A DNA stretch of 64,000 bases. Origin: an uncultured virus (IMG/VR IMGVR_UViG_3300033816_001043). Lineage: Duplodnaviria; Heunggongvirae; Uroviricota; Caudoviricetes. The position numbers and the translations under genes were made by a program. The notes below the pieces were generated by a model. The model was given only the letters and a program-made list of their open reading frames with translations. It ran no database searches and had not been told where the DNA came from. This document shows, in pieces, positions 5,291 through 51,106 of the stretch (the stretch's first letter is position 1; each line of letters begins with the position of its first letter). The DNA lies in the IMG/VR virus record IMGVR_UViG_3300033816_001043. The stretch is one strand, 5' to 3'.

Positions 5291-5397
5291 TAGTCAGGAC
5301 AGGATTCGAACCTGTAAAATCTTTTATCTGGTTTAGGGTAGGTTCTATTCCTATCTCCTTCCAAAACATATAGCGTCTACCATTCCGCCACCTGGCT
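5291..5397 (-). ncRNA. tRNA-like RNA (acceptor, D and T arms; no canonical anticodon arm)
   Basis: AGCCAGGTGGCGGAATGGTAGACGC...ACAGGTTCGAATCCTGTCCTGACTA. Confidence 0.65.
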
Positions 5398-6559: not shown

Positions 6560-6630
6560 AGCGGATAGTTGGTACCGCCCCAACTTATCTAGTTTGGAAG
6601 ACTAGAACATTACTTTTATGCTATACCCGC
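6560..6630 (-). tRNA. tRNA-Gly(TCC), non-canonical T loop
   Basis: CTAGT-CTTCCAA-ACTAG; T arm GTTGG-GGCGGTA-CCAAC. Confidence 0.8.
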
Positions 6631-15154: not shown

Positions 15155-15227
15155 TTCCCCCTGATGGAATCGAACCACCATCCTCAGAATCAAAATCTGA
15201 TGTAATCAACCATTATACCAAGAGGGA
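15155..15227 (-). tRNA. tRNA-Gln(TTG)
   Basis: TCAGA-TTTTGAT-TCTGA. Confidence 0.88.
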
Positions 15228-15255: not shown

Positions 15256-15287
15256 AAAAAAAACCCTGAACTTTATGGTTCAGGGTT
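15256..15287 (-). terminator. intrinsic terminator/attenuator after leader peptide 2
   Basis: AACCCTGAAC-CATAAA-GTTCAGGGTT followed by a T-run. Confidence 0.8.
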
Positions 15288-15311
15288 CTACTATCAAAAA
15301 ATTATTAACAA

Positions 15312-15419
15312 TTATAATTCTATAGAATTTCCCCAACCATTACAAACACTAGGTTTTGACCAACAATTACTAAATTGTGGCTGAACCGATATGTTAATAT
15401 GTTTGAAGAAATTTTTCAT
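15312..15419 (-). CDS. putative attenuator leader peptide 2 (MKNFFKHINISVQPQFSNCWSKPSVCNGWGNSIEL)
   Basis: 35-codon ORF ending about 25 nt before the terminator; composition matches the downstream tRNA array. Confidence 0.7.
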   Translation of the reverse strand: MKNFFKHINISVQPQFSNCWSKPSVCNGWGNSIEL

Positions 15420-28593: not shown

Positions 28594-29121
28594 ATGAAAG
28601 GTTACAATATAAAAGAATCTAATATACGTAAAGTTATCCGACAAAAATTAATGGAACAAATGGAAACGTCTGAACCAAAGGAAGAAAAAAAAGTTAGATG
28701 TGTTCCTGAAAATATTATGCCATTGGAGGAAATTGTAGGAAATGCTGGAGAGTATGTAACATACGCACCTGGTGTTACAAAAAGAAAAATGGGAGTTAAT
28801 TCTATGGTAGATACTTTAGGTATTTTGAATAATTTAAGATTATTCAAAGACATCAAAGATGGTGGTTCTCACTTAGCTTACGATATGATGCACCATTTAA
28901 ATAAGTTCAGAAACAAAAATTATTACGATGAAACAACAGGTGGTTGTAATAAAGCTATGGACAAAATTATTGAATTATACAAAGAAAACGAACACGGAAC
29001 TGAACTTGTTAAAGATATTGAGAGAGTTTTAAATCTTCAAACTAAAGATGATGAATTAACTCCATCACCAAGAGCGAAAGAATACCTGAAAAGAGCTTTG
29101 GCTTTAGTTAAAGGTGAATAA
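28594..29121 (+). CDS. hypothetical protein
   Basis: 175 aa; N-terminal IKE...LMEQ. Confidence 0.7.
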   Translation: MKGYNIKESNIRKVIRQKLMEQMETSEPKEEKKVRCVPENIMPLEEIVGNAGEYVTYAPGVTKRKMGVNSMVDTLGILNNLRLFKDIKDGGSHLAYDMMHHLNKFRNKNYYDETTGGCNKAMDKIIELYKENEHGTELVKDIERVLNLQTKDDELTPSPRAKEYLKRALALVKGE

Positions 29122-29232
29122 TCTAACCTCTTAGGAGGACTATTAGGACCGTTTGCTGTTACGGCAACAAAAAAAGAGGACATCGCTACGTCCTCTTTTT
29201 CTTTTATATCCTATTTATTAAGAAAATTTACT

Positions 29233-29529
29233 ATGAAAAACAAACTATTTTTCGGATGGGAAAATATTAAATGGTTAATTAGAGAAGTTACTAATATGTA
29301 TTCATCTAAAGAATCATTTTTTTCCAAAAAAAGGATTGAGTCCGGAATCGCTTTCATCATTGCACAATGGGGAATGATTTTCTTTTTATTAGAAAAACAT
29401 TCAGTTCTAACAATGACTGATTTGATTATGTGGGCAGGTGTTGAGTTTGCAATCTCAGGTTATATTATTCACCAAATCCAAAAAGAAAAGAAAACTGAAG
29501 AACAAAAAGAAGAAACCCCCAACGAATAG
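29233..29529 (+). CDS. small two-TM membrane protein (holin-like)
   Basis: SKKRIES, two TM segments, charged tail. Confidence 0.5.
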   Translation: MKNKLFFGWENIKWLIREVTNMYSSKESFFSKKRIESGIAFIIAQWGMIFFLLEKHSVLTMTDLIMWAGVEFAISGYIIHQIQKEKKTEEQKEETPNE

Positions 29530-29545
29530 TCAGGGGTTTTTTGTT

Positions 29546-31411
29546 TTACTTTACTTCTTCAAACTCTACATCTGAACCTGTAAAACCATCAGTGTTTTCA
29601 GTTTGTTCACTCACATTACTATAAAGTTCTTGGGTAATTTTTTGCATAATTGAATTAACATTATCTAACGCAGGGTCAATTTTTTCAATTTCACCAGTGT
29701 TTTTAGCCTCTTTTAATTCCTCCAAACCTTTTTTAACTTCTTCTTTGTGTTCATCAGAGATTTTTTCATCCAAATCCTTCAAAGTTTTCTCAATATTAAA
29801 GATTGTACTATCAGCCTCATTGATTTTTTCAGCTTTTTCTTTAGCTAATTTATCACTTTCAGCATTTTCCTCAGCTTCTCTCTTCATTCTGTCGATTTCT
29901 TCTTGTGAAAGTCCAGATGATGACTCAATTCTAATCGTTTGTTGTTTGTTTGTTCCCTTGTCTAAGGCCGAAACATTGATAATACCATTTGCATCGATGT
30001 CAAAAGTAACTTCGATTTGAGGAATACCTCTCATTGATGGTGGAATACCATCTAAATGGAATCTACCAATAGTTCTGTTGTCTTTTGCCATTGGTCTTTC
30101 ACCTTGTATTACGTGAATTTCAACAGAAGGTTGATTATCTACCGCAGTTGAGAAGATTTGTGACTTTTTGGTTGGAATTGTTGTATTTGCTTCGATTAAT
30201 CTTGTCATTACACCACCCATTGTCTCAATTCCTAATGAAAGTGGGGTAACATCCAATAAAAGAACATCTTTTACATCACCAGCTAATACACCACCTTGAA
30301 TCGCAGCACCCAAAGCAACAACTTCGTCAGGATTTACACCTTTTGACGCTTCTTTTCCGAAAAACTTCTTAACTGCTTCTTGAATTGCAGGGATTCTAGT
30401 AGAACCACCAACCAAAATAACCTCATCAATGTCATTAATTGTCAATCCAGCGTTTTTAAGAGCTGATTTACAAGGTGCAATCGTTCTTTCAACCAATTTA
30501 TCAATAATTTGTTCAAACTTTGCTCTTGTAAGTGTTTTTACAAGGTGTTTTGGTTGATTATCAATTACCATAAAGTAAGGTAAGTTAATTTCAGTACTTT
30601 GAGATGAAGATAATTCAATTTTTGCCTTCTCAGCTGCCTCTCTTAACCTTTGGATTGCCATAGAATCATCATTCCAAGCACCATTGTTCTCATTTTTGAA
30701 CTCGTTTTTTAACCAATCAGAAATAGCATTGTCAAAGTCATCACCACCTAAGTGTGTATCACCATCGGTTGATAATACTTCAAATACACCACCACCTAAT
30801 TCTAGTACAGATACATCGTGTGTACCCCCACCACAGTCAAAAACAACGATTTTAGAGTCCTTGTTTTTCTTATCAAGACCATAAGCAAGAGCAGCTGCAG
30901 TTGGTTCATTGATAATTCTCTTAACTTTCAGACCCGCAATCTCACCAGCTTCTTTTGTTGCTTGTCTTTGAGCATCATTGAAGTAAGCAGGAACTGTGAT
31001 AACGGCTTCAGTTACTTCTTGACCCAAATAATCTTCAGCAGTTTGTTTCATTTTCTGTAACACCATTGCTGAGATTTCTTGAGGTGAGAATTGTTTATCA
31101 TCAATCTCTACTCTTGGGGTGTTGTTTTTCCCTTTTACGACCTTATAAGGAACTCTCTTAACCTCTGACTTGGTTTCGTCATAATTTGAGCCCATAAAGC
31201 GTTTGATTGAATAAATTGTTTTGTCAGGATTGGTTACAGCTTGTCTTTTTGCTGGGTCTCCAATCTTTCTTTCACCATTGTCAACAAATCCAATGATTGA
31301 AGGGGTTGTTCTTTTACCTTCATTGTTTGTTATTACAATTGGTTCTCCATTTTCCATTACGGCTACACACGAGTTTGTAGTCCCTAAATCGATTCCAATA
31401 ATTTTACTCAT
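29546..31411 (-). CDS. dnaK: Hsp70 chaperone DnaK (start revised to [14 protein letters not shown])
   Basis: [36 protein letters not shown]. Confidence 0.97.
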
Positions 31412-31510
31412 ATTTTGTTCGTTTTTGTTTGAATTATATTGTTTATTTTTTATGTAGTCAATTCTACTCACAAACATTTGTTATAAAAAATTAATCCAAA
31501 CCTTTTTAAC

Positions 31511-31525
31511 CTGACAAATTGTCAG
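31511..31525. promoter_or_regulatory. palindrome CTGACA-AAT-TGTCAG upstream of dnaK
   Basis: inverted repeat; related motifs at 56539-58044. Confidence 0.45.
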
Positions 31526-31616
31526 TTTTAATGACAAAACATAATTTTTTTTATTATTTTTATAAAAAAATTGATTTTTCTAAAATCTTATCGTATTTAT
31601 TCCTAAAAGAAAAAAA

Positions 31617-31652
31617 ATGGACATCAATCTAAACAACATATACAATTTTTAA
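31617..31652 (+). CDS. Asn-rich leader peptide MDINLNNIYNF
   Basis: 11 codons, 4 Asn, directly followed by a terminator. Confidence 0.6.
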   Translation: MDINLNNIYNF

Positions 31653-31657
31653 TTCAT

Positions 31658-31688
31658 AACCCCCTTATTATTAGGGGGCTTTTTTTTA
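31658..31688 (+). terminator. attenuator-like terminator upstream of the AsnRS-like gene
   Basis: CCCCCT-TATTATT-AGGGGG followed by a T-run, inside the 5' leader. Confidence 0.75.
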
Positions 31689-31717
31689 TAAACCAATAAA
31701 CAAAATTAATAACAAAA

Positions 31718-32551
31718 ATGAAAAACACACAAATCTACAACGAGTTAGTACAAAAGATGAGAAACTTTTTCCAAGCCAAAGGTTTCTTGGAGGTTCCAAC
31801 ACAATCTAGACTTTCAATCCTTGCCGCTTGTGAAAATCCACATAGCATCACAAAATTTGAATATTCAGGTGAAATTTGGCCTTTACCACAAACAGGTCAA
31901 ATGTGGTTGGAATATGAATTACTTCTAAATCCTGAATTTCCTGGTGTATATTGTATCTCCACATCATACAGACAAGAAGCAAACCCAATCCCTGGTCGTC
32001 ACGACTTAATCTTCCCTATGTTCGAAGTTGAAACAAAAGGAACTAAAGAAGATATGGTTAAACTTCAAGCGGAAATGTTAGAATATTTGGGATTTGATAT
32101 TCCAATAGTTGTAGATTATAATGAACTTTGTGAAAAATACGGAACTGAAATCCTTGAAGCTGAACACGAAACAAAAATGTGGAATGAAATCGGTGATTCT
32201 ATCTCACTTCAAAACTTCCCATTGAGAACAAATCCTTTTTGGAATATGCAAAAGGGTGAAGGTGACAAATTCCAAAAGGTTGATGTTATCCTTTTCGGTC
32301 AAGAAACAATCGGTTCTGCTGAAAGAAGTTGTGATAAAGAAAGTATGAAAGAAATGTTCTACACAATCGAAGGTGGGAACTACTCAGCAAAACTTTTTGA
32401 ATTATTTGGTAAGGAAAGAGTAGAAAAAGAATTGGAACATTTCTTATCTTTGGATTTCTTCCCAAGATTTGGATGGGGTTGTGGCCTTACAAGATTGGCA
32501 AGAGCTTATGAATTGAATCTTACAAAAAAACTTACTGAAGCAATCATTTAA
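31718..32551 (+). CDS. class IIb aminoacyl-tRNA synthetase catalytic-domain paralog (AsnRS-like; possible asparagine synthetase)
   Basis: motif 1 RNFFQAKGFLEVPT, motif 2 SYRQE...RH..F.M.E, motif 3 GWGCGLTRL; no anticodon-binding domain. Confidence 0.8.
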   Translation: MKNTQIYNELVQKMRNFFQAKGFLEVPTQSRLSILAACENPHSITKFEYSGEIWPLPQTGQMWLEYELLLNPEFPGVYCISTSYRQEANPIPGRHDLIFPMFEVETKGTKEDMVKLQAEMLEYLGFDIPIVVDYNELCEKYGTEILEAEHETKMWNEIGDSISLQNFPLRTNPFWNMQKGEGDKFQKVDVILFGQETIGSAERSCDKESMKEMFYTIEGGNYSAKLFELFGKERVEKELEHFLSLDFFPRFGWGCGLTRLARAYELNLTKKLTEAII

Positions 32552-32553
32552 TT

Positions 32554-32739
32554 ATGGCGAAAAAACTAAACCCTGAACCTCAAATGACACAAGATACCAA
32601 ATCAGAAGTTGTTATAGACCACGGAGATATCATCCAAATATGGAAATATGACAAAAAATTGGGTAGAAATGCCTATGAAGTGGAAAATGTTTATAAAGGG
32701 GAAGCTAAGTTTAGTAAATTAAAAAAGGGGTCGAAATAG
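32554..32739 (+). CDS. hypothetical protein
   Basis: ORF. Confidence 0.55.
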   Translation: MAKKLNPEPQMTQDTKSEVVIDHGDIIQIWKYDKKLGRNAYEVENVYKGEAKFSKLKKGSK

Positions 32740-32751
32740 ACCCCCTTTTTT

Positions 32752-33429
32752 TTATTCTTTTTCCTCTTTTCCTGAGTATTTAACCCCCATTATTGTACCG
32801 ATTATACTAAATGCGTTAGTTAATAATATACCTAACATATTTGACCAAGTAGAACCAATCATTTGTGTATCTTTGTTTATTACTAAAGCCAAAATATACA
32901 TAAATGTGGTTATAATACCGATAGATATAATAACACCTAATGCAATTCTCACGATGTTACCAATTAATTCGGTTTGTTTTTTCTTTTGTAGAACATCCAA
33001 ATCATTAACCGCTGCAGTTTTGGCTTCTTCTGCTTGGATTCTTGCTAATTCTGACTTGGCCATCTCTTGTTGAAGTTCCACACTCATTCTTTGGTTGTCT
33101 TGTTGCCAAGCAAGTAACTCTCTATTTTGAACTTCGAAAGTCATTTTTGCCTCCTCAACCTCTTTCAAAGAAACTTGGAGTTCATCCATTATTCTTTGAT
33201 TTTCAGTATTGAGTTCAATTAGTTCTTTGTTCTTTTCCTGAACTTGTTTTGTTATTTCTAACCTTTTTTTTCTTGTTTCTTTATCTTTATCCTTACAATT
33301 CTCAACATATTTAGCAAAATCAGGGTCATCTGAAGAGTCAATAATCTTCAAAATATTACCTTCTAAACCAATATTTTTCTTTTCGAGTAATTCTATTAAC
33401 TCTTGTTTTGTTTCCTTATTAAATTTCAT
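32752..33429 (-). CDS. coiled-coil protein with two C-terminal TM helices
   Basis: heptad-rich region; coupled to the response regulator. Confidence 0.75.
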   Translation of the reverse strand: MKFNKETKQELIELLEKKNIGLEGNILKIIDSSDDPDFAKYVENCKDKDKETRKKRLEITKQVQEKNKELIELNTENQRIMDELQVSLKEVEEAKMTFEVQNRELLAWQQDNQRMSVELQQEMAKSELARIQAEEAKTAAVNDLDVLQKKKQTELIGNIVRIALGVIISIGIITTFMYILALVINKDTQMIGSTWSNMLGILLTNAFSIIGTIMGVKYSGKEEKE

Positions 33430-33863
33430 TATTTATACACCTTAAATGAGGCAGTTCTTTTTTTATAGCCTTCATAATCTTTTTTGAATTCTTCTAATCT
33501 AGGTTCGATATCATCAGATTTTATAATCCAAAATTGTGCGCCAGCTTGAACAGCTTTAGCTTGTTCTTCAGGTTCATTAGATGAGGATATAATCCCTATA
33601 ACCACATTATTACCATACTCAAAGTTAATCTTTCTAATCAATTCTATACCATCAAAGGAAGAACCAATTATATTTAAATCAACAAATACACACTCAGGTC
33701 TATCTGAATAATCACCACCCAACCATTTTTGAAAAAGTTTAGCGGCTTCATCAGAACTATTCAATGATTTTAGTGATAAACTAATATCTAATAAAGAACA
33801 AGCGTCTTCAAAAACTAAATGGAACAAGTCCTCATCATCTACCAACATTAACGAATCAATCAT
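33429..33863 (-). CDS. single-domain response regulator
   Basis: LVDDED, VFVDLN (phospho-Asp), ISSS, IIKS. Confidence 0.85.
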   Translation of the reverse strand: MIDSLMLVDDEDLFHLVFEDACSLLDISLSLKSLNSSDEAAKLFQKWLGGDYSDRPECVFVDLNIIGSSFDGIELIRKINFEYGNNVVIGIISSSNEPEEQAKAVQAGAQFWIIKSDDIEPRLEEFKKDYEGYKKRTASFKVYK

Positions 33864-33877
33864 TTTTTGTTTTTTTT

Positions 33878-36001
33878 TTATTTTATGTTTATTTTCATTT
33901 TAGTACCAATATCATTTTTTTCACATGTAATTTCAAATCCGTGTTCTTCTAAAATTGCAACACAAATATTTAACCCTAATCCTGTACCACTCTCTTTTTG
34001 TCCTTCTTTTCTTGTATATGGTTTTGATAAATGGTCGAAATCTTGTTGAGTGATTCCTCTACCATTATCTTGTATTATTAACAAATCCCCCTCCATAAAT
34101 ATTTTAACAAATTTCGTATCAGAATCGTTATATTTCAAACCATTTCTTATCAGATTATCAATTGATGTACAAAACAATGACTCATTCACATCTTTAGTTA
34201 TTAATTCCTCGATATGAACCTGACTTTTGTATGAGGTTGTTGTTAAGTAACTTTCTAAAATACTTTTTAGATTACATTCTGTTTTATTTAATACAACATC
34301 TTTTTTTACTAAGTTTGTAAATTCATAAACACCTTTATAAACTTTTTGAGCATGGCTCAACCCATCTTTAATCATTTTAAATGGTGCTGTTATTTTTAAC
34401 TCCTCTATTTGTTCAATAGTTAATCTTCGTTCTAATGAACTAACTCCCCTAGGTATGTATGTGTTAATACCTGAGTGCATATCGTGTCTTAGAATCTTTG
34501 CTGCGTGTTCTAAATAAGTGTTCTTTTTCTCAATTTCTATTGATTGTGTAATTCTATCAGTTATATCTGTTGCAATTTTCATTACTCTTTGTACTTTACC
34601 ATCTATATCAAATACAGGATTATATGAAGCTTGAATCCAAACTTTGTTTTTATCTTTAGTAAACCTTAAAAACTCATCAGTAACATATTCTCCACTTTTT
34701 AACAATTTCCAAAACTCTTTATATTCAGGAGATTTTGAATATTCCTTTGAAACAAAAATCTTATGATGTTTACCTTTTAATTCTTTTTCTTCATAACCCA
34801 TTTTTTCACAGAATAAACTATTAGCAAACATAATTTTACCATCCAAATCAAACTCAATAACCATATTCGATGTATTAATAGCATTCATCCTATTTTTTAT
34901 ATCAATTTCTTTTTTCTTGACTTCTGTTACATCATATCTGATTGACATATACCCCAAAAACTTACCATTTTCATCAAAATCACCTTTTATATATGAATCA
35001 ACCCAATATAAGTTACCATTTTTATCCCTATTTGTAACAATCTCATTCCAAATCTTTTTCTCAACGACAACATCTTTGTACATATTAGCCCAAAACTCCT
35101 TGGGATGTTTACCCGAATTAACAATACTATGGTCTTTTCCTCTTACTTCATCTAAAGACCATCCAGATACTTCCTCAAACTTTTTATTTACATATGTTAT
35201 TCTACCTTTATTGTCCGCTTTAGAAACCAAAACAGATGTATCAACAAACTTTTCGAACTCTTGTAAATTACCTCTCAAAATATTACTTTCTTTAACCGAA
35301 TAAGCAAAAGAATATAGTGATGATAACATTTGAGCAAAGTTAACTTCTAATCCAATCCATTCCCTTAATGTTTTACTCTCAATACACACAACACCAATTA
35401 CATCGCCTCTGTACATAATTGGAACATCCAACATAGATTTAATACCAAGGGGTTTCAAATACCCTTCAACAAAACAATATGTTGCGGTATGAGTTTCAGC
35501 ATTGTTTGCAATAATAATCGGATTGATTTCTAAGTGTTCAAAATAGGCGATAAAATCTTTTTTATACATTTCCGCCCCACTATACCATTCATCTTCTTTT
35601 TTAATATAAAGTTGTTGACAGATAATTGAGGTTTTATCTGAATTATATAACCAAATTGAACATCTATCAGCATCAATTGATTCTGTTACTTCCTTTGTTA
35701 AAGTTTTTGCCCCATCCTTTACATTTCCTTGATAAAATAATGAATTGTGTGATTGTGATATAAGAACTTTGTTAAGTTTTTTGGAGTATTGTGTTAATTT
35801 TATATTATGTTTTAATTTATTAGTATATTCTTTTACCAAGATTGAAAAGAATGGTAAAAAAACAATAAAACAAGATAATTCAATTATTTTGATTAATTGT
35901 AGTGCGTCATTTATAAAAAATAATGAAATCATCTTCATTATAAAGAAAATTGACATAATTAAAACTGAAAAGTAAATAGAAATTTTAACCTTGATTGACA
36001 T
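33878..36001 (-). CDS. membrane sensor histidine kinase (2TM-GAF-PAS-PAS-HisKA-HATPase)
   Basis: ADRCSIW GAF, two PAS/PAC, RHDM H-box, NLIRNGLKY, DNGRG, GTGLGL. Confidence 0.9.
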   Translation of the reverse strand: MSIKVKISIYFSVLIMSIFFIMKMISLFFINDALQLIKIIELSCFIVFLPFFSILVKEYTNKLKHNIKLTQYSKKLNKVLISQSHNSLFYQGNVKDGAKTLTKEVTESIDADRCSIWLYNSDKTSIICQQLYIKKEDEWYSGAEMYKKDFIAYFEHLEINPIIIANNAETHTATYCFVEGYLKPLGIKSMLDVPIMYRGDVIGVVCIESKTLREWIGLEVNFAQMLSSLYSFAYSVKESNILRGNLQEFEKFVDTSVLVSKADNKGRITYVNKKFEEVSGWSLDEVRGKDHSIVNSGKHPKEFWANMYKDVVVEKKIWNEIVTNRDKNGNLYWVDSYIKGDFDENGKFLGYMSIRYDVTEVKKKEIDIKNRMNAINTSNMVIEFDLDGKIMFANSLFCEKMGYEEKELKGKHHKIFVSKEYSKSPEYKEFWKLLKSGEYVTDEFLRFTKDKNKVWIQASYNPVFDIDGKVQRVMKIATDITDRITQSIEIEKKNTYLEHAAKILRHDMHSGINTYIPRGVSSLERRLTIEQIEELKITAPFKMIKDGLSHAQKVYKGVYEFTNLVKKDVVLNKTECNLKSILESYLTTTSYKSQVHIEELITKDVNESLFCTSIDNLIRNGLKYNDSDTKFVKIFMEGDLLIIQDNGRGITQQDFDHLSKPYTRKEGQKESGTGLGLNICVAILEEHGFEITCEKNDIGTKMKINIK

Positions 36002-50609: not shown

Positions 50610-50922
50610 ATATTATATCGTTGAAAAATAATTTTATATTTGGGAAATGTGTACCAATTAAATATTGAATTGTTGCTCTAATATTATCAAAATCCTCTCT
50701 ATTACCACTAACATAAAAATTAAGATAAACATTTAATCCTGTATATGGCACAATTCTATCAATCTCAATTCTCTTAACAGATTCCAACTCCTCCAATTCA
50801 TCCATCTCACCCAATCCCCAATCCTGAGATTCTTCTCTCAAATTATCCAATTCACCATCAATCAAATTTTGAATGTGTTTTTTGAATTTCTCCAATTGTT
50901 TATCCGTGATTTCTACTTTCAT
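50599..50922 (-). CDS. hypothetical protein with MKVEITDKQ leader
   Basis: ORF. Confidence 0.65.
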   Translation of the reverse strand: MKVEITDKQLEKFKKHIQNLIDGELDNLREESQDWGLGEMDELEELESVKRIEIDRIVPYTGLNVYLNFYVSGNREDFDNIRATIQYLIGTHFPNIKLFFNDIIYED

Positions 50923-51106
50923 AATATATAAATATCTTAAATAAAAAACCCAACTTTTATTGTTGGGTTGTTAAACATTTTTTCAAAACCTCTTTATTCT
51001 CATTCATTCTTTTCAAGGTTTTCTTAAATGATTTTTTACTTTGTCTTTTGTTTCTTGGAACTCTTTTATTCTTTGCCATAATTTTTTAATATAAATATAC
51101 TTCTAT

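Follow-up and report, generated by a model that had tools for sequence, protein, structure and literature searches.

An Asn-rich leader and a conserved terminator precede an AsnRS-like gene in uncultured lake phages

Introduction

Leader-peptide attenuation is a textbook mechanism in bacteria for Trp, His, Leu, Thr, Ile/Val, and Phe, and its classical examples include trpL, hisL, pheL, thrL, leuL, and pheM, the last of which lies before pheST and provides a precedent for a synthetase. The pyrBI (pyrL) and rph-pyrE systems of Escherichia coli and Salmonella are terminator-only attenuators, in which a ribosome close behind the polymerase prevents formation of the hairpin and uridine triphosphate (UTP) is sensed through polymerase pausing. 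The present study concerns a cassette at positions 31571–32551 of a 64,000-nucleotide stretch of DNA from an uncultured virus of the class Caudoviricetes (IMG/VR record IMGVR_UViG_3300033816_001043), hereafter referred to as the window. In this cassette, an Asn-rich mini-open reading frame (mini-ORF) and a predicted intrinsic terminator precede a gene resembling those for asparaginyl- and aspartyl-tRNA synthetases (AsnRS and AspRS). The initial annotation of the window, made from its sequence alone, inferred an Asn-sensing attenuator of an asparagine synthetase, in which a stalled ribosome may block the hairpin. We found the Asn-rich mini-ORF and terminator to be a conserved cis-element tied to the gene, as that annotation implied, but the stalled-ribosome logic was not supported, and the leader geometry suggests a switch of the opposite polarity.

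Several synthetase paralogs that lack an anticodon-binding domain have been described. GluQRS (YadB) and EpmA (PoxA), whose parents are GluRS and LysRS, load a tRNA anticodon base and elongation factor P, respectively. According to the accessible text of PMC3532385, the archaeal asparagine synthetase (AS-AR) derives from AspRS. In a literature search, no Asn-codon leader, no phage leader-peptide attenuator, and no terminator-only design on nearly leaderless RNA was found.

Organization of the cassette in the window

The first four of the features below constitute a self-contained cassette (31571–32551) comprising a promoter-like motif, an Asn-rich mini-ORF, a terminator, and the AsnRS-like gene.

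31571..31601, plus strand: promoter-like region; TTG at 31571–31573, then TATTTATT at 31594–31601 after 20 nt (putative promoter)
31617..31652, plus strand: leader mini-ORF; ATG start, 11 codons and TAA, with Asn at codons 4, 6, 7, and 10
31660..31687, plus strand: predicted intrinsic terminator; hairpin at 31660–31678, one C, and T8 at 31680–31687
31718..32551, plus strand: AsnRS/AspRS-like gene; 277 amino acids (aa), class IIb core without an anticodon-binding domain
32554–32739, plus strand: downstream 61-codon ORF; no Pfam or PHROG match
32727–32744 (hairpin) plus T-run, to 32750, plus strand: second terminator, from the terminator scan

Reading of the sequence from 31300 to 32800 bore out the basic anatomy given in the initial annotation, i.e. 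a mini-ORF encoding MDINLNNIYNF, with four Asn codons among 11, directly followed by a hairpin with a T-run. The hairpin starts eight bases past the TAA of the mini-ORF and has a stem of 6–7 bp with five G-C pairs, and 30 nt separate the end of the T-run from the ATG of the gene at 31718. The hairpin at 31660 was listed by the terminator scan, which returned 12 terminator-like sites in 15 kb against 5.8 ± 2.2 in shuffled sequences. It was the sole structure common to the minimum free energy and centroid folds of 31601–31717, the overall folding of which is unremarkable (z = −1.8). An Rfam scan of the window detected tRNAs only and no leader, riboswitch, or T-box at the gathering score; the best sub-threshold match was to Phe_leader (21.8 bits versus a gathering score of 55, E = 0.21).

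The upstream neighbour of the cassette is a divergent Hsp70/DnaK-like gene on the minus strand, and therefore the terminator at 31660–31687 ends no long gene. Other strong terminators in the window are mostly located 5–52 nt behind a co-directional ORF. A contig from the metatranscriptomic run X16 covers 31601–31767 with two mismatches, ending on one side at the last base of the promoter-like region (a weak hint of promoter function), and bridges the leader, the terminator, and the start of the gene, which is weakly consistent with read-through from the TATTTATT promoter-like site; the RNA evidence of this run consists of assembled contigs, in which DNA carry-over is possible. Judged by position, the 61-codon ORF and the terminator reaching 32750 probably belong to the same transcription unit, which this terminator would end. 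A megablast comparison of 29000–36000 with phage records returned just one short, Hsp70-like match.

Conservation of the leader and terminator in relatives

A scan of viral contigs yielded 595 relatives of the protein, the best 80 of which (71–100% identity) were taken, and the upstream comparison set (n = 78) consisted of the window and 77 loci with at least 150 nt of upstream sequence. A hairpin with a T-run is present 16–58 nt upstream of the gene ATG in all 78 regions; the identical terminator rule was positive before 25 of 188 other genes from the same loci. The innermost 5-bp stem exists in 16 distinct versions across the relatives, indicating that the terminator structure is maintained by compensatory change.

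Leader ORFs were defined as ATG ORFs of 5–30 codons that end between −15 nt and the hairpin end. By this rule, a short ORF ending at the terminator was identified in 73 of the 78 loci, and 36 distinct leader peptides were obtained once two ambiguous loci had been set aside. Asn accounts for 118 of the 489 in-frame codons (24.1%) of these 36 leaders, whereas AAY triplets account for 29 of 453 (6.4%) and 26 of 453 (5.7%) in the other two frames. This is an enrichment of approximately 4-fold that is confined to the leader frame, and Lys (AAR) codons show no frame preference. In short control ORFs taken from these A-rich loci (n = 2086), Asn averages 6.8%, and tandem Asn occurs in 5.9% of them, compared with 22 of the 36 leader peptides. 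At least 10 clearly different stem/peptide families can be distinguished among the leaders. Loss of the Asn codons in homologs had been set beforehand as the outcome that would speak against an Asn leader; the Asn codons proved to be conserved, and the rest of the peptide is not.

Little is shared by the leader peptides, which span 9–26 codons, beyond their richness in Asn. A conserved bioactive peptide was considered and rejected on account of this variation in length and of the Asn richness being the only common feature.

The genes surrounding the cassette vary by locus and include those for Hsp70, lysozymes, metallophosphatase, FKBP, PPK2, and transposases. As the flanking genes differ between loci, the promoter-like motif, mini-ORF, and terminator travel with the gene. 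No recurrent partner gene was found in the neighbourhoods of 27 freshwater-type loci or of one huge-phage locus (L084). In most of the 36 leaders, a (G/A)TATTTATT-like motif ends 3–18 nt before the leader ATG, its recurrence having been judged by eye, uncounted, in the 70 nt upstream; given this short distance, the leader RNA is probably short or leaderless.

In many of the relatives L030–L080, a conserved GCCC(A/T)TA-like motif is located just past the T-run, whatever the stem. This motif is absent in the window.

Leader geometry and proposed mechanism

Our geometry calculation assumes that the front edge of a ribosome lies 12 nt beyond the first base of its A site. Relative to the hairpin start, the first base of the stop codon lies between −11 and +13 nt in the 36 leaders, and in 12 of them the stop codon is inside the hairpin. 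In every one of the 36 leaders, a ribosome positioned at the stop codon would reach into the 5′ arm, and in 33 it would do so by at least 3 nt. When the A site holds the last Asn codon, an overlap of at least 3 nt with the 5′ arm is obtained in five of 35 leaders. The distance from the leader ATG to the hairpin is 32–77 nt. The proposal that a stalled ribosome blocks the hairpin fits this arrangement poorly, as only 12 of the 118 Asn codons lie near enough for a ribosome stalled there to touch the hairpin, compared with the stop-codon overlap in 36 of 36 leaders.

In several relatives, the gap between the T-run and the gene ATG is only 16–22 nt, which leaves no room for a promoter of its own, and the gene must therefore be transcribed through the terminator. 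The initial annotation saw no antiterminator, and none emerged here: the fold of the window leader (31601–31717) shows the terminator alone, and the leaders across relatives are nearly G-free, offering no pairing partner for the C-rich 5′ arm.

In the mechanism that we propose, a ribosome crossing the mini-ORF without delay would reach the stop codon and would there cover or unwind the 5′ arm of the hairpin while the polymerase makes the 3′ arm and the T-run; termination would then fail, and the AsnRS-like gene would be transcribed. When charged tRNA-Asn is scarce, the ribosome would lag at Asn codons 15–35 nt upstream, the hairpin would form, and transcription would stop. The enzyme would thus be made when Asn-tRNA is plentiful and would be off when it is short. 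This polarity is opposite to that of the initial annotation and follows from the predicted coverage of the 5′ arm at the stop codon and from the excessive upstream distance of most Asn codons.

Whereas the layout, its recurrence in relatives, the enrichment of Asn in a single frame, and the stop-codon geometry are observed directly, we infer translation of the mini-ORF and termination at the hairpin, as well as the polarity of the switch. The existence of a ribosome-read attenuator is, in our judgement, highly probable; given such an attenuator, the ON-when-plentiful polarity is moderately favoured. For the combined proposal, i.e. a ribosome-mediated, terminator-only attenuator with pyrBI/pyrE-like coupling that switches the gene on under ample Asn-tRNA, we consider the chances to be even.

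Several points weigh against this proposal. The polarity depends on the assumed footprint size and on the lack of an alternative structure, and in the window itself the stop-codon overlap is marginal, at 1–5 nt according to the choice of stem start. No polymerase pause site was identified for such short leaders, none having been sought beyond the terminator. If the enzyme made Asn, a switch that is ON when Asn-tRNA is plentiful would amount to perverse feedback. The leaders compared come from related sequences, so that their counts do not represent independent events. A short ATG ORF is missing from five of the 78 loci, among them L060 and L063, where a co-directional gene ends at the terminator; in two others (L052 and L056), the short ORF is the 3′ tail of a co-directional upstream gene, and the leader of L076 contains no Asn codon. 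Finally, the leader does not occur in the marine or giant-virus branches.

Sequence, structure, and pocket of the enzyme

The 277-aa protein matches the Pfam family tRNA-synt_2 over residues 4–261 (E = 1.2e-15) and has no N-terminal oligonucleotide/oligosaccharide-binding (OB)-fold domain, in agreement with its first description as a class IIb core without an anticodon-binding domain. Its PHROG match is phrog_29758, annotated as 'unknown function' (E = 3.5e-91). The AlphaFold2 model is confident, with a predicted local distance difference test (pLDDT) value of 96.8. In Foldseek searches with this model, the AsnRS and AspRS cores ranked first and archaeal AsnA was close behind (TMq 0.71–0.73); as all three rank so closely, the fold does not separate them. 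NCBIfam scores and their cut-offs were 36.1/414 bits for AsnRS, 19.6/389 bits for archaeal AsnA (NF005055), and 18.1/286.9 bits for EpmA. When 52 diverse family members were compared with NCBIfam, none reached any cut-off, and the weak matches were to archaeal-type AspRS in 27 members, AsnRS in 26, archaeal AsnA in 15, and EpmA in 10. A family profile compared with the PDB matched AsnRS (1.7e-15), archaeal AspRS (2.7e-13), archaeal AsnA (3p8t; 1e-6), and EpmA (3a5z; 6e-5). The enzyme is thus not EpmA-like, an identity named at the outset as one that would contradict the Asn assignment; the EpmA matches are weak, limited to 10 of the 52 members, and short of the cut-off.

Alignment to 2XGT and 2XTI indicated that the arginines of motifs 2 and 3 and of G-S-x-x-R are kept. 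L64, E65, R85, R203, and R259 each reach at least 90% conservation in the family, and the motif 2 loop is retained. At the Q-x-x-Q motif, the family has Leu-Glu as in AsnRS, where AspRS has Lys. In addition, a Glu of the family aligns with a conserved Glu of AsnRS, which we take to be the binder of the alpha-amino group of the substrate. The roles of the pocket residues in AsnRS and AspRS follow in part the accessible text of PMC7387524. On the basis of these residues, an Asn-binding, adenylate-forming enzyme is favoured over an aspartate-activating one, and the protein may be described as a class IIb adenylate-forming core with AsnRS-like pocket motifs that probably binds Asn.

The family is large and mostly viral: clustering at 90% identity gives at least 8000 clusters, clustering at 50% identity gives 166 with E < 1e-30, and the ESM Atlas returned only its own viral clusters. 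The enzymes of the window, marine, and giant-virus branches are 50–60% identical to each other, which makes a single activity across the branches likely. No paper on the function of this enzyme was found in the literature search; the one mention of the gene that was located is a table row, 'tRNA ligase', in the accessible text of PMC3037559.

Genomic links to tRNA-Asn and pyrimidine synthesis

The marine branch was represented by 80 loci (L085–L164) collected with the query P0128. In 63 of these, a tRNA gene is located directly 3′ of the synthetase-like gene; 61 of the tRNAs were called tRNA-Asn(GTT), and two were unassigned by ARAGORN. In 35 loci the tRNA gene and the synthetase-like gene overlap or lie no more than 14 nt apart, and the maximum gap is 226 nt; four of the 17 loci without the tRNA have less than 300 nt of downstream sequence. 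This tRNA, hereafter referred to as the long-arm tRNA(GUU), is unusual: it is 77–100 nt in length, its variable arm is long and its D arm Leu-like, the GTT is invariant, and G73 is present. It has U1-A72 in 38 of 39 cases, and position 37 is variable and often not A. Cloverleaf covariation is pronounced in these tRNAs, with 98.6% of cells paired and compensatory change in 17 of 20 pairs. The gene and the long-arm tRNA are paired in P-SSM2 and P-SSM7, and in the marine branch a T4-type late promoter motif stands in place of the Asn leader. Examples of the tRNA are as follows.

2320–2405 of L145: long-arm tRNA(GUU)
2278–2364 of L081 (P-SSM7): long-arm tRNA(GUU)
2286–2373 of L082 (P-SSM2): long-arm tRNA(GUU)

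No long-arm tRNA was found beside the gene in the window, its 80 related loci, or the giant-virus loci. A covariance model of the long-arm tRNA(GUU) applied to the window detected ordinary tRNAs only, the best being a tRNA-Leu and none having GTT.

Several members of the family have ties to the de novo synthesis of pyrimidines. P0125 and P0273–P0279 are fusions of the synthetase-like core with dihydroorotate dehydrogenase (PyrD), and P0154 is a fusion with orotidine monophosphate decarboxylase (PyrF). Among 21 giant-virus loci, the gene adjoins PyrD and/or a PyrE-PyrF-like protein in three (L217, L224, and L238), and in six further loci it adjoins ribonucleotide reductase, dihydrofolate reductase (DHFR), ThyX, or deoxynucleoside kinase. 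Among the named isolates in 50,697 phage records, the gene, the long-arm tRNA, and an annotated orotate phosphoribosyltransferase coincide in the three cyanophages P-SSM2, P-SSM5, and P-SSM7. No PyrD, PyrF, or phosphoribosyltransferase gene was found in the freshwater relatives G001–G004 and G006, which argues against extending the pyrimidine link to the whole family; in the group to which the window belongs, no such link is seen.

Possible functions and alternative explanations

No known activity explains all three genomic links of this family. An Asn-using enzyme that feeds pyrimidine synthesis is the function that we propose tentatively, at somewhat less than an even chance; a ligase directed at tRNA-Asn seems unlikely to us, and so does an asparagine synthetase, with some other activity accounting for the rest of the probability. 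A switch that is ON when Asn is plentiful fits the pyrimidine-feeding role, is neutral for a tRNA ligase, and is a bad fit for an asparagine synthetase. In a more specific form, which is speculative in its chemistry and which we regard as improbable, the enzyme would consume Asn, possibly by ATP-dependent ring closure of N-carboxy-asparagine to dihydroorotate, the leader would serve as a substrate gate, and the tRNA(GUU) would guard decoding. The evidence supporting an Asn consumer consists of the genomic links, and the leader geometry suggests the polarity. If such a route from Asn to dihydroorotate exists, it would circumvent the feedback-controlled steps catalysed by carbamoyl-phosphate synthetase, aspartate transcarbamoylase, and dihydroorotase; the Asn leader would be a gate that permits synthesis of the enzyme only when translation has enough Asn, and the marine long-arm tRNA(GUU) would shield Asn decoding from the drain.

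The conserved Asn-rich leaders would also fit a classical feedback attenuator of asparagine synthetase, in which Asn starvation stalls the ribosome, the terminator is blocked, and more enzyme is made. Starvation-dependent stalling is the usual logic of amino-acid leaders, stand-alone cores that make Asn exist, archaeal AsnA being both a Foldseek match (TMq 0.71–0.73) and a profile match (3p8t), and the last Asn codon is close enough to touch the hairpin in eight of 35 leaders. This explanation nevertheless encounters the lack of an antiterminator, the 106 of 118 Asn codons that are too far upstream to occlude the hairpin, and a stop codon placed at or in the hairpin in all 36 leaders, which is needless in the classical scheme. 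On the enzyme side, AsnA matches 15 of 52 members, compared with 26 for AsnRS and 27 for AspRS, and never at the cut-off, the AsnRS-type Leu-Glu and the aligned Glu are kept, and Asn synthesis leaves the PyrD and PyrF fusions unexplained. The initial assignment as an asparagine synthetase was accordingly not borne out, in that no curated cut-off was reached, AsnA scored below AsnRS and AspRS, and the genomic links lead instead to tRNA-Asn and pyrimidine synthesis. We consider feedback control of this kind unlikely.

A tRNA-directed ligase, i.e. a minimal AsnRS or a modifier of tRNA-Asn whose leader acts like pheM before pheST by adjusting the synthetase-like gene to how far its own tRNA is charged, would account for the marine loci, 63 of 80 of which have the long-arm tRNA(GUU) directly downstream, for the cloverleaf covariation of these unusual tRNAs, for the presence of tRNA and gene in the same three named isolates (P-SSM2, P-SSM5, and P-SSM7), and for the retention of the motif 2 loop and AsnRS-like pocket motifs. 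It is, however, difficult to reconcile with the missing anticodon-binding domain, with the pyrimidine-enzyme fusions, and with the lack of an adjacent long-arm tRNA in the window, related, and giant-virus loci despite 50–60% identity between the enzymes, and we regard it as doubtful. The mini-ORF might also be untranslated. In that case the hairpin would be an insulator, a leaky terminator, or the terminus of a small RNA transcribed from the conserved promoter, and the Asn codons would arise from A-rich DNA. The DNA has a G + C content of approximately 31%, the ATG lies 3–8 nt past the promoter-like motif in many relatives, so that the RNA may be nearly leaderless, and five of 78 loci are without the ORF. 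However, AAY is enriched 4-fold in a single frame and AAR (Lys) is not, control short ORFs from the same loci contain 6.8% Asn, and the frame still ends between −11 and +13 nt relative to the start of the hairpin although the peptides differ. An untranslated mini-ORF is accordingly very unlikely in our view.

tRNA complement, neighbouring genes, and host

ARAGORN identified 21 tRNAs in the window, and Rfam added two, i.e. Gly(tcc) at 6560–6630 and an odd 107-nt gene at 5291–5397. The resulting 23 genes agree in number with the initial annotation, as does the absence of Asn, but they cover 17 rather than 19 amino acids, Ala and Ser also being missing; the window is part of a genome. No tRNA-Asn was seen in the nearest record, G001 (148 kb, estimated to be 50% complete), whereas the related records G002, G004, G005, and G006, all with the same leader-gene unit, have an ordinary tRNA-Asn(GTT) of 72–76 nt. 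Because these four leader-carrying records encode tRNA-Asn(GTT), the absence of tRNA-Asn is not tied to the leader.

The odd gene at 5291–5397 (minus strand) combines an acceptor and D arm like those of tRNA-Leu with an A73-like discriminator, and scores 34.4 bits in Rfam; ARAGORN folds it as Gln(ttg) only with a 29-nt insertion after the anticodon loop. At 15261–15419 (minus strand), a 35-codon ORF (15419–15312) is followed by a strong terminator (15288–15261) just upstream of the tRNA array, the first member of which is tRNA-Gln at 15227, and this site may be another leader-like unit. At 50947–51079 (minus strand), a very basic 40-codon ORF ends in a terminator hairpin (50969–50947), and the next gene starts 25 nt further on, at 50922.

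The cassette is flanked by the phage-encoded Hsp70/DnaK gene (29546–31477, minus strand) and by a segment at 32752–36001 (minus strand) encoding a response-regulator receiver protein and a 707-aa ORF (33878–36001), the counterpart of which in L007 contains PAS and histidine-kinase ATPase domains. Two separate ORFs make up the Hsp70 gene in L012 (281–2694, minus strand), L049, and L067, and the pieces in L012 are approximately 700 nt apart. I-HmuI-like endonuclease genes are present in L012 and L031. These observations suggest either a frameshift or the insertion of an intron or homing element into the Hsp70 gene.

The sequencing runs that contain this DNA are lake and freshwater metagenomes, and a neighbour protein in one relative carries the type IX secretion sorting domain PF18962. 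The TATTTATT-like motif resembles what we take to be the Bacteroidota −7 element. These features suggest a host belonging to the Bacteroidota.

Comparison with known systems

This large, mostly viral family is linked in three ways to asparagine/tRNA-Asn and de novo pyrimidine synthesis, and could harbour a novel synthetase-tRNA pair or a novel metabolic bypass of viruses. The proposed switch, if real, would mean that large lake phages time one gene by sensing how well the host supplies translation with a single amino acid.

Among known enzymes, AsnRS is the best sequence and structure neighbour of the encoded protein, and motifs 2 and 3, Q-x-x-Q...L-E, and G-S-x-x-R align; in contrast to AsnRS, the present enzyme has no N-terminal anticodon-binding domain and belongs to a mostly viral family. 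Archaeal AsnA (AS-AR; 3P8T, 3REU, 3RL6, and 1NNH) is likewise a stand-alone class IIb core of approximately 290 aa without an anticodon-binding domain, but its sequence relation to the family is weaker than that of AsnRS and AspRS, and the family has the AsnRS-type Leu-Glu. GluQRS and EpmA share the organization of a synthetase core without an anticodon-binding domain but descend from other parent synthetases.

The leader resembles classical attenuators in combining a short ORF rich in one amino acid, an intrinsic terminator, and a downstream gene related to that amino acid. It differs from them in having no antiterminator or pause hairpin, in a stop codon that abuts the terminator, and in its opposite predicted polarity. 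The likeness to pyrBI and rph-pyrE lies in a leader ORF that ends next to or within the terminator and in the absence of an antiterminator, and the geometry needed for coupling is found here as well. Unlike in pyrBI and pyrE, the conserved feature of the present leaders is their Asn codons, so that the speed of the ribosome would be sensed, and the leader is far shorter (9–26 codons), is located in a phage, and is probably carried on a nearly leaderless RNA.

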